A DNA stretch of 63,018 nt, counting the filler, from Octopus bimaculoides (lineage: Eukaryota): the NCBI RefSeq assembly GCF_001194135.2. It is 6 parts of 5 records of this genome, joined end to end, with 100 filler letters (N's around TTAATTAATTAA, not from the genome) between each part and the next. Parts side by side here need not be neighbours in the genome. Positions count along the whole stretch, not along the records: positions 1 to 6,187 come from NC_068988.1; positions 6,288 to 15,038 come from NC_068984.1; positions 15,139 to 26,603 come from NC_068989.1; positions 26,704 to 40,763 come from NC_068989.1; positions 40,864 to 56,326 come from NC_068982.1; 1 more part is not named here. The stretch is one strand, 5' to 3'. Every line of letters begins with the position of its first letter. The stretch's first letter is position 1. Under the pieces are notes generated by a model that had not been told where the DNA came from, made no database searches, and saw only the letters and a program-made list of their open reading frames with translations. Shown here piece after piece: positions 4,019 through 47,516 of the stretch. The position numbers were made by a program, and so were the translations under genes.

Positions 4019-4436
4019 AGTTTATATAGAGGATTGGTAACTCAGCAGAAATGTAATAGATAGATAGATGAGTTCTTAACTTTTGTATACGATTGCCAAA
4101 TTCCATCACTAAGGTAAACATAGCTGACGTAATTCATCACTATGGCCAACTCAATGACAAAAAGCGCAACTCGAAAGTAACTTATTACATTTCTGCTGAG
4201 TTTCCAATCCTCTATATAAACTAAAAATGAATTAGACTAACATTTATTTTATTTTGAACTTGTTGAAGACACACGAGATGTCGAAATATTGTTCAAAGGA
4301 CCAATAAATAAGTTACTTTCGAGTTGCGCTTTTTGTCATTGAGTTGGCCGTAGTGATGGATTACGTCGGCTATGTTTACCTTAGTGATGGAATTTGACAA
4401 TCGTATACAAAAATTAGGAACTCATCTATCTATCTA
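4019..4436. repeat. Double foldback (Penelope pLTR-like) element
   Basis: 4057-4186 is the reverse complement of 4307-4436 (130 bp, 6 mismatches by eye); 4019-4058 is the reverse complement of 4183-4222 (40 bp, 1 mismatch). Confidence 0.9.
4253..4297 (+). ncRNA. Minimal type-I hammerhead-ribozyme-like motif (variant core UUGUUGA)
   Basis: TTTGAAC-TTGTTGA-A-GACA cacgaga TGTC-GAAA-T-ATT-GTTCAAA: 7-bp helix I, 4-bp helix II, palindromic ATAT helix III, AUU triplet, AATAAA just downstream. The core deviates from CUGANGA at C3 and A6. Confidence 0.55.
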
Positions 4437-4511
4437 TCTATCTATCTATCTATCTATCTATCTATCTATCTATCTATCTATTATTATTATTATTATTATT
4501 ATTATTATTAT

Positions 4512-6118
4512 TGCCATACAGTTTCACCATTTTGTCCACAAATTCTGAACTTATCACTTTCTGATGTGTTGTCTATTCTGTATTTGATGTAATGCTTGCT
4601 TTTGAACAGCGCAGATTAGAGTCTCCATTTCCGGTTTTAAATCGCTATTAGTCATCCACAGCCATCTTTTTCTTTGTCTTATCTTCAACATCCATATGAA
4701 ATTAACCATGTATTCTTTTCTTTATCCACCTATTTTCAGTTTCATTCATTCTCAAGTGCTTATACAGTGCTTTATCTTCGCAATTTTCCATCCTACACAA
4801 GCTTGACCTTGTTACTTCCAATAATAGCAGTTCCATGGTATTTTTTACATACCATCCTATGTTGTTTTCTGCTCTAATGCTGTGCTCGCATCCAATAAGT
4901 CCTCTTCCCCCTCTTTTTATTGGTACATACAGTCTGTGTAACTTTTTGGATGGAGTATCCCATATCTAGTCAGAAACTTCCTTGTCTTTCTGTCTAAGCA
5001 GTTTAGTTCGTCTACTGTCCATAGGATTACCCCTGCTCCATATCTAAGGAGCGAAACCGCCCAGGTGTTGATAGCTTCAATCTTATTCCGTCCGTTTAAT
5101 TTCGACTTAAAGATCAGTCTCAGTCTGCGCAAGTGCTCCACCTTGAATTTTTCTGTCATTTCGTTCTCCATCAATTTATCCATTTCCAATATCCGCAAGT
5201 ACTTATAGCCTGTCTCTTCTATCTGCTTCATAACCTCCCCCGACGGTATCGCTAGCTTGTCCATACATTTGATTTTGCCTCTCTTCAAGACTAACTTACC
5301 ACATTTTTTCAGTCCGATATCCATTCAGCACTGAAAGTATGCATCGTATCAACGATGGAACCGTCTTGGGATTAATCTTTACCATAAAGTTTGAGGTCAT
5401 CCATGAATAAAAATGGCTGACCTTTTGTTCGCGGGTCTTGAATACATACCCAGCCTTTGCCTTCCTCAGAATCAGTGTTAGTGGTATCAAGCACAGTACA
5501 AAGATCAGTGGGGACAGGCAGTCCCCTTGGAAGATGCCTCTGCTGATTTCTATTATCCCTAAACAACTTCCATATGCCGTCAGGTCCGTCCTCCACTTCA
5601 CCATACTTTTTCCAAGCAATCGCTCAACATTCGATGCAGTACCAAATAGGTTCATACATTACATCATCCAGGAATGTGGGATCATATCGTACGCCTTAGG
5701 ATAATAGATCCATGGCTTAGTTTTCCTTCTCTTGCAGTCTCTAAGTACAGTTTTGTTTAACAAGAGTTGATCCTTGGTACCTCTGCACATACGCTTGCAA
5801 CTCTTTTGCTCATGTGGCAGGACTCCATTTTTTCCAGATGTCCGTACACTGACTCTGCGACTATTCCAGTCAATAATTTTCACATAAATGGCAAGCAGGA
5901 TACCGGCCTGTAATTGTCTACCGCACTACCTTTTTTCGATTTTTTTCAAGCACAGCACTGTCCTACCCATTGTCAACCACTCTGGTGTAACTTGATCAGC
6001 ATTTAACAGGGTGTTGAGCTGTGCGGCTATTCGTGCATGACATTCACCAGTTCTTTTTATCCAGTAGCTTTCGACTCTATCTGATACCGGGGCCTTCCAG
6101 TTGCTCATTTTTTGCAGA
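4512..6118 (-). pseudogene. Dong/R4-type LINE reverse transcriptase to zinc-knuckle region (frameshifted)
   Basis: ORF pieces [87 protein letters not shown], and WMTNSDLKPEMETLICAVQ..FRICGQNGETVW; flanked on both sides by (TTA)n. Confidence 0.92.
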
Positions 6119-6187
6119 TTATTATTATTATTATTATTATTATTATTATTATTATTATTATTATTATTATTATTATTATTATTATTA

Positions 6188-6287
6188 NNNNNNNNNNNNN
6201 NNNNNNNNNNNNNNNNNNNNNNNNNNNNNNNTTAATTAATTAANNNNNNNNNNNNNNNNNNNNNNNNNNNNNNNNNNNNNNNNNNNN
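6188..6287. other. Artificial assembly spacer 44N-TTAATTAATTAA-44N (also 15039-15138, 26604-26703, 40764-40863, 56327-56426)
   Basis: Identical 12-mer with stop codons in all six frames at 6232, 15083, 26648, 40808, 56371, each centred in a 100-bp N block. Confidence 0.95.
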
Positions 6288-6557
6288 GAGATCGTTGCCA
6301 GTGCCCCTGGACTGGCTCTTGTGCGGGTGGCACATAAAAGACACCATTTCGAGCGTGGCCGTTTTCGTGCGGGTGACACGTAAAAGCACCCACTACACTC
6401 TCTGAGTGGTTGGCGTTAGGAAGGGCATCCAGCTGTAGAAACTCTGCCAAATTAGATTGGAGCCTGGTGTAGCCATCCGGTTGCACCAGTCCTCAGTCAA
6501 ATCGTCCAACCCATGCTAGCATGGAAAGCGGACGTTAAACGATGATGATGATGATGA
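6288..6557 (+). mobile_element. Repeat family C (RTE-like 3' end, (GAT)n tail)
   Basis: GAGTGGTTGGCGTTAGGAAGGGCATCCAGCTGTAGAAACTCTGCC...CCATGCTAGCATGGAAAGCGGACGTTAAACGATGATGATG; matches 56601-56756. Confidence 0.75.
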
Positions 6558-6597
6558 TATATATATATATTTATATATTTACACACATACACATGCA

Positions 6598-6840
6598 ACT
6601 TTTACTTGTTTCAGCCATTCAACTGAACCCTTCCACCCCATCCAGGATTTACTTTTTAAGTCTGATACTTATTCTATTGGTCTCTTTTGCTGCTGTGGTG
6701 GGGTCAAACACAACACAAAGACACACATATACACATGCACACACATGATGGGCTTCTACCATATCCCCTCACAAAGCTTTGATTGATCCGGGAATATAGT
6801 AGACAAAACTTGCCCAAGGTTCAACACGGAAGCAGAACAT
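6598..6840 (-). mobile_element. Degenerate SINE family B copy
   Basis: TTTTACTTGTTTCAGCCATT, ATTCTATTGGTCTCTTTTGC, ATAGTAGA..ACTTGCCCAAGGT collinear with 9378-9768. Confidence 0.6.
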
Positions 6841-45975: not shown

Positions 45976-46126
45976 TAACATGAACAGTAGTACCGTGTTT
46001 ACAGGGTGCATCATTCTCTACTCTGGTTTCAGAGGCAAATGCACCGTTTACACGGGTCCAGAGCTGAAAGCTGAAGAAAACAATACAACACATAACATTA
46101 GATGTATGAAACTCTCTTACTTTCTG
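45976..46126 (+). repeat. 151-bp segment duplicated at 47075-47225
   Basis: TAACATGAACAGTAG...CTCTTACTTTCTG, one mismatch (GAGG vs GAAG). Confidence 0.95.
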
Positions 46127-47037
46127 TCTAACTTCACAAGTGCTACAGCTGTTTGAAATACGAAGCGTTTTCCCTTGTACCCTGTACTATATGAAAATAC
46201 TCTTCTTAATGTGTTTCAGAATTAGAGAAGTAATTTTAGTTCACCTGCGTAAACATCATAAATAAAGAAATTGGAGTCTTTGTTACATTTGTCGCAATGT
46301 TTTCTAGTCTGCTGAATGACACAGTAAACAGACAGAATTAAGTGTATGCTGCCGAAGAATGGAGAACACCACAACGTGAAGATGTGAAATATCTACACTT
46401 AATTTAGGTTTTGCTCCAGGTCCTGCGCTTGAACGGATGGAGCCAGTAATGCAAATTGAGACTAAGTAAAGCAGAGGATTACATTTAAGAATGGGAAAAC
46501 GTTGTTAAGCAGATTTGCTTTGTAAATATTCGAGAACCATGAATAGAATGGCAATACGAACTTTTCCGCAACAGCCGAATATAATAAACATTTGTAGAAA
46601 TATGAGGATAAGAGGGATGTGTATTAGTCTATTAAATTAAACATTTTTGATAACAACAGCAGCAATAATGATAATACTAACAACAACAATAAGAATGATA
46701 ATAATAATACTAATTATAATAATAACAACAACAATAATAATAGTAATAAACAATGGAAAACATTATTATGAACTAAGTATTGCCCTACCGACAGCGTATT
46801 TAAAAAATAGCCTGTTTTAAAAATGTTTAAACTGAAAGAAAATAGATTTGTAAATACAGTTGTAATTCCAAGCGTTTGATTCATATAATATATATATAGA
46901 CACTCAAAGAGAGAAAAAGAATATACAGTAAATTTAAATGATAAGCTTTAAAATTATTATTAAACCTTGGGAGAGGCATTATGCCGGTAATAAACACACG
47001 CACTGGTTCAGTCCTTTATTAATTTATATAGTTTTTT

Positions 47038-47078
47038 GTTAAATTATTTCATTGCACTCTTGCAATCTCTTCAGTAAC
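47038..47078 (-). ncRNA. Minimal hammerhead-like motif (canonical CUGAAGA core), left-arm copy
   Basis: Exact reverse complement of 47241-47281. Confidence 0.62.
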
Positions 47079-47240
47079 ATGAACAGTAGTACCGTGTTTA
47101 CAGGGTGCATCATTCTCTACTCTGGTTTCAGAAGCAAATGCACCGTTTACACGGGTCCAGAGCTGAAAGCTGAAGAAAACAATACAACACATAACATTAG
47201 ATGTATGAAACTCTCTTACTTTCTGGAAGTGGAGAGACAA

Positions 47241-47281
47241 GTTACTGAAGAGATTGCAAGAGTGCAATGAAATAATTTAAC
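47241..47281 (+). ncRNA. Minimal hammerhead-like motif (canonical CUGAAGA core)
   Basis: GTTA-CTGAAGA-G-ATTGCA agag TGCAAT-GAAA-TA-ATT-TAAC: 4-bp helix I, 6-bp helix II, AUU triplet, AATAAA ~17 nt downstream. Confidence 0.65.
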
Positions 47282-47472
47282 AAAAAACTATATAAATTAA
47301 TAAAGGACTGAACCAGTGCGTGTGTTTATTACCGGCATAATGCCTCTCCCAAGGTTTAATTGTATTTCTTTCAACACACGTATCCACATCAAGAATCTTG
47401 CACACGAAATACACATACGAAATTTAAAATTATTGTTTCATGCATTATTTACATTATTTACATTTGACGGTA

Positions 47473-47516
47473 ACACAAAGTTTCGGCTGATATACCCTCC
47501 AGCCTTCATGAGGTGT
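47473..47516 (-). ncRNA. Hammerhead-like motif in element Q (core CUCAUGA, probably decayed CUGAUGA)
   Basis: ACAC-CTCATGA-A-GGCTG gagggtatat CAGCC-GAAA-C-TTT-GTGT: 4-bp helix I, 5-bp helix II; G5->C and a non-pairing helix III in this copy. Confidence 0.65.

Follow-up and report, generated by a model that had tools for sequence, protein, structure and literature searches.

Six hammerhead-like motifs lie in short repeats of the Octopus bimaculoides genome, and the question they raise is whether they mark a ribozyme-processed retroelement of a new design or belong to a class already described. The window, that is, the whole stretch of DNA analysed (63,018 nucleotides from assembly GCF_001194135.2, joined from six parts with N filler between them), had initially been annotated as carrying a non-canonical hammerhead layout in several non-autonomous, retrozyme-like families mobilised by Penelope-like element (PLE) machinery. 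Minimal PLE hammerheads are type I ribozymes with a short helix I, an extra base between positions 9 and 10.1, a G10.1-C11.1 pair, a palindromic segment at about 15.1-16.1/15.2-16.2 and often U at H17; a genome holds several families, mostly as single copies, with opposite-strand pairs 100-700 bp apart (PMC4209133). PLE insertions are recognised by an inverted 5'-truncated copy at the 5' end and a 30-40 bp tail at one end, and their targets are ATT-rich or microsatellite DNA, with a cleavage preference for ATT (PMC8557442, PMC11167929).

Hammerhead motifs and their statistics

The sequence check found all six motifs where, and on the strands on which, the initial annotation had placed them. 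They fall into four families (A to D):

4253-4297, plus strand: motif 1, family A; minimal hammerhead, core U3/U6, helix II of 4 bp, palindrome AUAU, U17 at 4290
40000-40036, plus strand: motif 2, family B; minimal hammerhead, core CUGUUGA (U6), palindrome ACGU, C17 at 40031
40321-40356, minus strand: motif 3, family B; minimal hammerhead, core CUGUUGA (U6), palindrome ACGU, U17
46959-47081, minus strand: family C left arm, carrying motif 4 (47038-47078; exact core, helix II with an A-U closing pair, AUAAU segment)
47238-47360, plus strand: family C right arm, carrying motif 5 (47241-47281), 99% complementary to the left arm
47473-47516, minus strand: motif 6, family D; decayed form of the minimal hammerhead, with C5 and a palindrome broken to ACUU

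Every motif reads as helix I, a 7-nt core, one purine, helix II, GAAA, 1-3 nt, UH and helix I', with the extra base between 9 and 10.1 in 6/6. The core CUGANGA is exact in motifs 4 and 5 and altered in the other four, with a single change in motifs 2 and 3 (U6) and in motif 6 (C5) and two in motif 1, where U3 and U6 are combined with a retained G8. The G10.1-C11.1 pair is present in four motifs (three of the four families), A-U taking its place in motifs 4 and 5, and the palindrome is complete in three motifs, has one central mismatch in two and is broken in motif 6. No difference separates motifs 4 and 5 over 120 bp (100% identity), and the six motifs represent about five insertion events.

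A descriptor with at most two core mismatches, the extra purine and at least 4 bp in each of helices I and II, relaxed post hoc with the motifs already in view, matched six times in the window, each match being one of the six motifs, and never in 60 block-wise dinucleotide shuffles. With the exact core there were two matches in the window, and the shuffles gave none at any stringency. The YUGWNGA core originally suggested for such a search would let motif 6 (C5) escape, whereas the relaxed core recovers all six. Rfam matched its hammerhead family nowhere in the regions of motifs 2-6, nor among 150 of the 201 whole-window matches listed, these being low-complexity miRNA-type noise. Cofolding of motif pairs produced a dimer-type stem III in 0/6, with rod-like duplexes or separate monomer folds instead. 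Data from beyond the window cover family B and a fifth family (E, below); A, C and D are single loci.

Inverted copies, tails and insertion sites

The insertions of families A, C and D comprise the following further features:

4183-4437, plus strand: family A direct unit, about 255 bp, without a long open frame, ending in (TCTA)n
4056-4186, minus strand: family A copy of 4307-4437 (95%), inverted, 5'-truncated and lacking the hammerhead
4019-4058, minus strand: 40-bp one-sided tail of that inverted copy, equal to the direct-unit start 4183-4222 (97.5%)
47075-47225, plus strand: family C foldback spacer, a near-exact copy of 45975-46126, likely a template-switch capture
47442-47657, minus strand: family D element, consisting of a tRNA-like head followed by (AAT)6, some 65 bp, the hammerhead and a short 3' end
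47603-47651, minus strand: A-box/B-box pattern of the tRNA-like RNA polymerase III type, preceding motif 6
47658-47732, plus strand: family D inverted 5'-truncated piece, directly adjoining the head and extended at its 3' side by a tail of about 31 bases
47433-47441, plus strand: left copy of a 9-bp repeat flanking the D insertion, a candidate target-site duplication
47733-47741, plus strand: the same, right copy

Local inverted repeats, which make up 5.5% of the non-N bases, lie in or beside all four loci. To that extent the earlier statement that the motifs always sit in foldbacks stands, but motif 1 lies in a spacer rather than an arm and the family B pair is likely no single foldback; moreover, the association is partly circular because the inverted repeat is the element's own second copy. 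An inverted 5'-truncated copy at the 5' end was seen at three of the four loci (A, C and D), with an arm of 131 bp in A, an inverted arm in C and a 27-bp match in D, and one-sided tails of 40 bp in A and about 31 bp in D accompany it. Since the family A unit starts with the tail sequence, a short tandem or circular template, and with it non-autonomy, is suggested for this family.

Inspection for target duplications placed families A and B in microsatellites; the whole A insertion is bordered by (ATT)n tracts, which fits the ATT cleavage preference of PLEs. A clear target duplication was not found at the C locus, and at D the 9-bp flanking repeat had a chance frequency of 242/200000. The A/B-box pattern occurred at two loci in the window against 0.02 matches per shuffle, and in D the head that it forms falls between the two candidate target-duplication copies and does not represent the end of an ORF. 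ARAGORN and Rfam made no call on this head, the element (one copy in the window) folded no better than shuffles (z 0.0), and the motif 6 pattern had 0 matches in a prokaryote-genome scan. Taken from sequence, the tRNA-like promoter ahead of motif 6 hints at a PLE-mobilised SINE, in one copy only; its non-autonomy is suggested because the head is tRNA-like.

Family B in RNA reads

Family B is represented by two copies:

39933-40134, plus strand: copy 1, likely 5'-truncated, with (TA)n at its end
40227-40390, minus strand: copy 2, 82% like copy 1 and convergent with it across (TA)n and an N gap

Motifs 2 and 3 accordingly face each other 3'-to-3' over the (TA)n tract and the gap. Because the copies are convergent and only 82% alike, the locus lacks the inverted 5'-truncated copy; a single foldback was dropped as an explanation, and the 40000/40321 pair likely represents two separate insertions.

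The family was very abundant in the reads of two organisms, with about 2100-2300 RNA reads at the motif from about 6% of each of two runs. Position 17 varied between C and U, with U making up 33% of the summed contig depth in one organism and 89% in the other. A change at 40008 (position 6) was absent among the 40 of 162 rows listed and a loose-end consensus from the reads also had U6; U at core position 6 is likely fixed. Folding cannot separate U6 from A6 because the core of the monomer is paired with either letter. Furthermore, 450 and 636 RNA reads extended upstream of 39930 into one common sequence missing from the window, and the sequence of copy 2 runs on upstream toward the gap at 40764.

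RNA ends at the predicted H17 and circular RNA, both expected under the original proposal, did not appear for this family: read starts and ends were not piled at position 17 in the two RNA runs, and a back-joint from the 3' end to the 5' start was absent among the 15 of 51 joints listed, ordinary fragmented libraries being a weak test of either.

A fifth family and an endonuclease-like relic

Two further features precede the family B locus:

38902-39280, plus strand: broken, frameshifted relic resembling by eye a PLE GIY-YIG endonuclease (CxxC before YxG, then TGRRLADQFREH)
about 39718-39762, plus strand: a seventh hammerhead, assigned to a fifth family (E) and further decayed than the six, overlooked in the initial annotation

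Other family E copies in the reads have G8 in 83% and the helix II partner in 80%, both of which are lost in the window copy.

A possible GIY-YIG donor had been proposed at 38902-39263. The resemblance to a broken PLE endonuclease holds by eye, its features being spread over three frames, but searches of Pfam, homologs, Atlas and PDB were negative (weak tests, with single-frame pieces of 22-91 residues), the lone match in an HMMER library (P0001) was a tandem-repeat protein, and the two loci returned by a metagenome scan were both unrelated bacterial DNA. The relic is low in copy number and nearly silent (0-3 RNA reads per bin), and a joint between it and family B was absent among the 15 of 51 joints listed. 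With neither profile or homolog support nor a tie to any hammerhead family, it was dropped as a shown donor. Within the window, an RT-endonuclease ORF was attached to none of the hammerhead copies.

Interpretation

Judged by layout, inverted copies and tails, the six motifs very probably have the minimal type I hammerhead layout of PLEs and lie in short non-coding copies likely inserted by a Penelope-type reverse transcriptase/endonuclease, so that the earlier assignment to several PLE-type families is borne out. The chief result is that they are further members of a published class. The layout itself is not non-canonical: the extra base, the palindrome and the opposite-strand pairs are all found in the minimal PLE hammerheads of PMC4209133, whose consensus is CUGANGAH-G..C-GAAAN-palindrome-NUH with U17 common and, in one listed family, G as the extra base, and novelty of layout was therefore dropped. 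Non-autonomous families are indicated for A and D only; the copies of B and C may instead stem from longer elements of which a truncated end remains.

Such copies could arise as follows. The PLE protein would nick AT-rich or microsatellite DNA, as PMC11167929 and PMC8557442 suggest, and reverse transcription would begin downstream of the hammerhead, where two possible sites would lie 30-40 nt from each other. An early stop would be usual, leaving most copies with just the last 100-250 bases, hammerhead included; a second cDNA joined 5'-to-5' would give the inverted arm, and the two alternative start sites the one-sided tail. Cleavage by the hammerhead would require dimerisation or assistance from a protein, and the decayed, solitary copies in the window probably have no activity.

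Whether the hammerheads of A and B are catalytically dead relics, kept as a recognition hairpin or passively carried, is close to an even call. U6 in A, in both B copies and in the read consensus, together with the unchanged 40008 among the rows listed, speaks for it, as do the reduced activity of hammerheads changed at position 6 (A6C) and the in vitro insertion achieved by hammerhead-cleavage mutants (PMC11167929). However, the remaining core, helix II, palindrome and H17 are retained in both B copies, A6C variants still cleave with Mn2+, and folding does not discriminate between the letters.

A reading in which every copy is just what remains of the 3' end (pLTR) of a truncated autonomous PLE, and non-autonomous families do not exist as such, is rather doubtful. 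The majority of minimal hammerheads in print do occur as single copies from truncated PLEs (PMC4209133), and the off-window extension of the family B reads and of copy 2 agrees with this; for B and C the explanation is compatible with PLE-type insertion of short copies. Against it, A begins at its own tail sequence without a long open frame, and D has an A/B-box head within a target-duplicated insertion.

Active retrozymes, i.e., tandem or circular RNAs excised by the ribozyme as first proposed, are less likely still. In family A the 255-bp unit begins with the tail sequence, which a tandem or circular template would produce, family B is plentiful in RNA reads, and animal retrozymes have been proposed to come from PLE ends (bioRxiv 10.64898/2026.07.22.740005). 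Yet direct tandem units with two hammerheads are absent from the window, described retrozymes mostly have canonical hammerheads, and the family B reads gave neither an end pile nor, among the joints listed, a back-joint, weak as fragmented libraries are here. Retrozyme-like organisation was accordingly not borne out, and neither was ribozyme processing, given four altered cores in six, the family B read ends and insertion without cleavage in vitro. Chance look-alikes within hairpin-rich repeats are hardly conceivable: the lack of an Rfam match and the retrospective fitting of the descriptor would allow them, but the empty shuffles and the read data contradict them, and the palindrome, G-C closing pair, tails and inverted copies are present though outside the descriptor.

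Preferring PLE-type insertion of short copies, we regard the finding as adding little at the level of the class, for which minimal hammerheads at PLE ends and inverted insertions are already published. The newer details are the decayed seventh hammerhead, the abundant family with a likely fixed U6 and the tRNA-like promoter at motif 6; only the family D copy, with its tRNA-like start, would be somewhat new. SINEs have been described as dependent on non-LTR (LINE) machinery, and an element that combines a tRNA head with the insertion signature of PLEs would, if true, represent an additional SINE partner class; no report of one was found in the accessible part of the literature searched (Repbase and subscription papers outside the search). 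Tentatively, at somewhat less than even odds, we propose that family D is a tRNA-headed SINE with a PLE rather than a LINE partner, as a polymerase III head, a PLE hammerhead end, the inverted piece with its 31-bp tail and the 9-bp target duplication would suggest, and that family B, with U6 at very high copy in two organisms, is a natural and ready test of whether PLE hammerheads must cut.

Comparison with known systems

Many PLE hammerhead variants have reportedly been described by Lunse et al. (PMC5785218) and may already cover U6. In the accessible parts of the literature searched, including PMC3088659 and PMC7151607 (Lunse et al. outside the search), a natural A6U hammerhead was not found, and U6 of families A and B is absent from the 56 examples in the Fig. 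S3 text of PMC4209133. The minimal hammerheads of metazoan PLEs (Cervera and De la Pena 2014, PMC4209133) otherwise share the topology, extra base, palindrome without a stable stem III, U17 and opposite-strand pairs seen here, and the A-U closing pair of motifs 4 and 5 also occurs in published PLE examples; motif 1 differs in combining U3 with G8, and the copies here have no attached ORF.

PLE insertions (Craig et al. 2021, PMC8557442; Frangieh et al. 2024, PMC11167929) show the same inverted copy, one-sided tail and targets, whereas here these accompany non-coding copies of 120-255 bp, with the arms of C enclosing 151 bp of nearby DNA and a tRNA-like head in D. Non-LTR animal retrozymes (PMC7229834; Li et al. 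2026, bioRxiv 10.64898/2026.07.22.740005) are likewise short non-coding type I units of proposed PLE dependence, and the 255-bp unit of family A falls in their size range (Cervera and De la Pena 2020, PMC7229834), but the hammerheads here are minimal instead of canonical and form no tandem array in the window. The SINE-like elements of Schistosoma share with family D the order of a polymerase III promoter and then a hammerhead, but the review covering them (PMC6765202) describes tandem elements cut from multimers; family D has one copy in the window, and its minimal hammerhead comes with an inverted piece, a tail and a target duplication of the PLE type.

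Results

The window is AT-rich (34% GC) eukaryotic DNA, probably octopus judging by its repeats, with many gaps and with microsatellites and transposon fragments throughout. The six hammerhead-like sequences of the initial annotation are present at their coordinates, with the following cores:

4253-4297 (+), motif 1, family A: U3 and U6, G8 present
40000-40036 (+), motif 2, family B: U6
40321-40356 (-), motif 3, family B: U6
47038-47078 (-), motif 4, family C: exact hammerhead core
47241-47281 (+), motif 5, family C: exact hammerhead core
47473-47516 (-), motif 6, family D: C5

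A descriptor of the layout they were said to share, loosened after the motifs were already known, matched exactly these six on both strands of the window and nothing in 60 block-wise dinucleotide shuffles. At no more than one core mismatch it gave five matches and at zero mismatches two, with none in the shuffles each time. The closing pair of helix II is G-C in four of the six motifs and A-U in two. Self-complementarity of the segment that follows GAA is complete in motifs 1-3, interrupted by a single central mismatch in motifs 4 and 5, and disrupted in motif 6. Rfam did not call motifs 2-6. The layout had been considered non-canonical; it is not, because the accessible text of Cervera and De la Pena 2014 (PMC4209133) defines the same one as the minimal hammerhead of metazoan Penelope-like elements (PLEs). 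The consensus there is CUGANGAH-G..C-GAAAN-palindrome-NUH, with U17 in many examples, and the recurring features are an extra base between positions 9 and 10.1, a G10.1-C11.1 pair, and palindromic 15.2-16.2 positions. The motifs are correctly spotted examples of an already known kind.

The contig sets of organisms A and B and two RNA runs (~6% of each) were mapped to 38900-40125 at 80% likeness. This stretch holds a seventh, more decayed hammerhead (~39718-39762) of a fifth family, E. Among the other copies of family E, 83% of the contig depth carries G8 in each organism, and 80% and 82% carries the helix II partner at 39745; a G ahead of AAA is inserted in 20-25% of depth and also belongs to the consensus built from 134 and 97 loose ends. 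Of the data here, these copies argue most strongly that an intact family motif has decayed in the window copies. Seven strand-switch joints of family E, each in one or two contigs, were found among the 15 of 51 joints listed. The multi-copy family E sequence (39718-39925, +) adjoins family B copy 1 on its upstream side, and another multi-copy repeat, at 39570-39680, contains a 23-bp inverted repeat (39577-39599 / 39657-39679).

Family B is very abundant, a statement left in words because summed contig depth, 2.7 million and 1.35 million at motif 2 in the two organisms (~45 over the unique part in organism A), is no copy number. RNA depth at motif 2 was ~2100-2300, about equal in both directions. 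At position 17 both C and U occur, U making up 33% and 89% of contig depth and 22% and 19% of RNA reads. U6 is likely the family's own letter, since no change at position 6 was seen among 40 of 162 rows listed and U6 is present in both window copies and in a loose-end consensus. Two weak negatives concern processing: read starts or ends did not pile up at the predicted cut site in the two RNA runs, where the sole read-end pile lay at the edge of the mapped stretch, and no back-joint connecting the 3' end to the start occurred among the 15 of 51 joints listed. Copy 1 is likely truncated, because 450 and 636 RNA reads extend upstream of 39930 into one common sequence absent from the window. A His/Pro/Thr-rich open frame (40427-40763, -) stops ~70 bases before motif 3, on its upstream side, and extends into an N gap; it could represent low-complexity sequence from the upstream portion of a longer family B element.

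A possible GIY-YIG donor had been proposed at 38902-39263, in a broken, frameshifted stretch at 38902-39280 (+). Translation of 38900-39340 revealed CxxC, then YxG and TGRRLADQFREH, spread over three frames, in agreement with the published description of PLE endonucleases, and the stretch is likely an old PLE relic. Its contig depth was 45-264, with 0-3 RNA reads per bin. Pfam, homolog, HMMER library, Atlas, PDB, and metagenome searches were all negative. The donor role itself was not borne out; no joint linked the relic to family B among the 15 of 51 listed (a weak negative).

The motifs had also been said to lie always in foldbacks. An inverted copy or piece is present at loci A, C, and D; locus B departs from this pattern. 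Local inverted-repeat spans make up 5.5% of non-N bases, and motif enrichment in them is partly circular. Locus A lies between (ATT)n tracts:

4019-4058, tail, 40 bp
4056-4186, inverted copy, 131 bp
4183-4437, direct unit, 255 bp, containing motif 1

This arrangement fits the PLE insertion signature in the accessible text of Craig et al. 2021 (PMC8557442), according to which PLE insertions often have, at their 5' end, a 5'-truncated copy in inverted orientation and, on one end, a tail of 30-40 bp. The tail sequence equals the start of the direct unit, which has no long open frame; together these suggest that the template was short and either tandem or circular, and the unit is likely non-autonomous. 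Locus C is a young inverted pair, with 100% identity over 120 bp and helix I starting both arms. Its spacer (47075-47225) is a 151-bp near-exact copy of 45975-46126; at one junction of this local duplication a short stretch of letters is shared, and the other junction shows a small snap-back. The two copies at locus B converge 3'-to-3' across (TA)n and an N gap and are 82% alike, which makes it likely that each was inserted separately into a self-complementary target. Further local inverted repeats, in which no hammerhead-like motif lies, occur at 23922-24132, 30886-31215, and 48265-48507.

Joined to the 5' end of locus D is an inverted piece that carries ~31 extra 3' bases, and the whole is flanked by a 9-bp direct repeat (47433-47441 / 47733-47741) that 242 of 200000 random position pairs equal. 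A pattern search placed the following within this target-duplicated insertion:

47603-47651, A-box/B-box pattern, 85-130 bases upstream of motif 6

The window has two A-box/B-box loci versus 0.02 matches per shuffle (100 shuffles); the family D pattern was not called by ARAGORN or Rfam. On the simplest reading, family D would be a SINE-like element with a tRNA head that PLE machinery mobilised. Alternatively, the head could be of separate, tRNA-derived origin, a piece ending in (AAT)n that was captured at this single locus. A second tRNA-like A/B-box head (59545-59630, +) probably belongs to an ordinary SINE.

Other repeats in the window were as follows:

36191-37463 (-), broken DNA-transposon relic with Pfam matches HTH_psq and DDE_1
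2189-2857, 4917-5658, 40988-41359, 57557-57979, 58897-59235, non-LTR retrotransposon ORF-like fragments (by eye; no convincing Pfam match among the pieces tested)
3754-3940, 16199-16386, 33326-34284, 44184-44307, 56853-57016, 60265-60477, 62299-62771, dispersed family of 120-210 bp repeats, numerous copies in both orientations, frequently with an (ATT)n end
49397-49645 / 50229-50477, direct repeat of 249 bp, 100%, adjoining gaps, likely an assembly duplication

Discussion

Most likely, a PLE protein would bind the RNA end and nick ATT-rich or microsatellite DNA; reverse transcription would be primed at one of two close sites downstream of the hammerhead and stop early, and a foldback would be two cDNAs joined 5'-to-5'. 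We infer this from the accessible portions of PMC8557442 and of Frangieh et al. 2024 (PMC11167929), the latter linking the PLE tail to two reverse-transcription start sites and demonstrating a preference for ATT. It also reports hammerhead cleavage only when protein is present, the ribozyme being dispensable for in vitro insertion.

Cores are altered in four of the six motifs, and changes at position 6 reduce hammerhead activity (PMC3088659 and PMC7151607, accessible parts). Cofolding of motif pairs did not yield the dimer form. The literature search found no natural U6 core; Lunse et al. (PMC5785218), outside that search, may cover U6. Family B, with U6, and the tRNA-headed family D are the parts deserving a genome-wide look. 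A promoter-plus-hammerhead SINE is known in Schistosoma (PMC6765202, accessible part); a PLE-mobilised tRNA SINE was not reported in the available text of the literature searched, including PMC10886601, PMC6962438, PMC6685494, and PMC13282606, with Repbase and subscription papers outside the search.

The proposed retrozyme-like status was not supported in the window: retrozymes are defined by a tandem arrangement, according to the accessible parts of PMC7229834 and bioRxiv 10.64898/2026.07.22.740005, and no tandem arrangement of hammerhead units is present there. Among metazoan PLEs, the available text of PMC4209133 describes several hammerhead families per genome with compensatory changes, in copies that are mostly single and derived from truncated elements, with opposite-strand pairs 100-700 bp apart.
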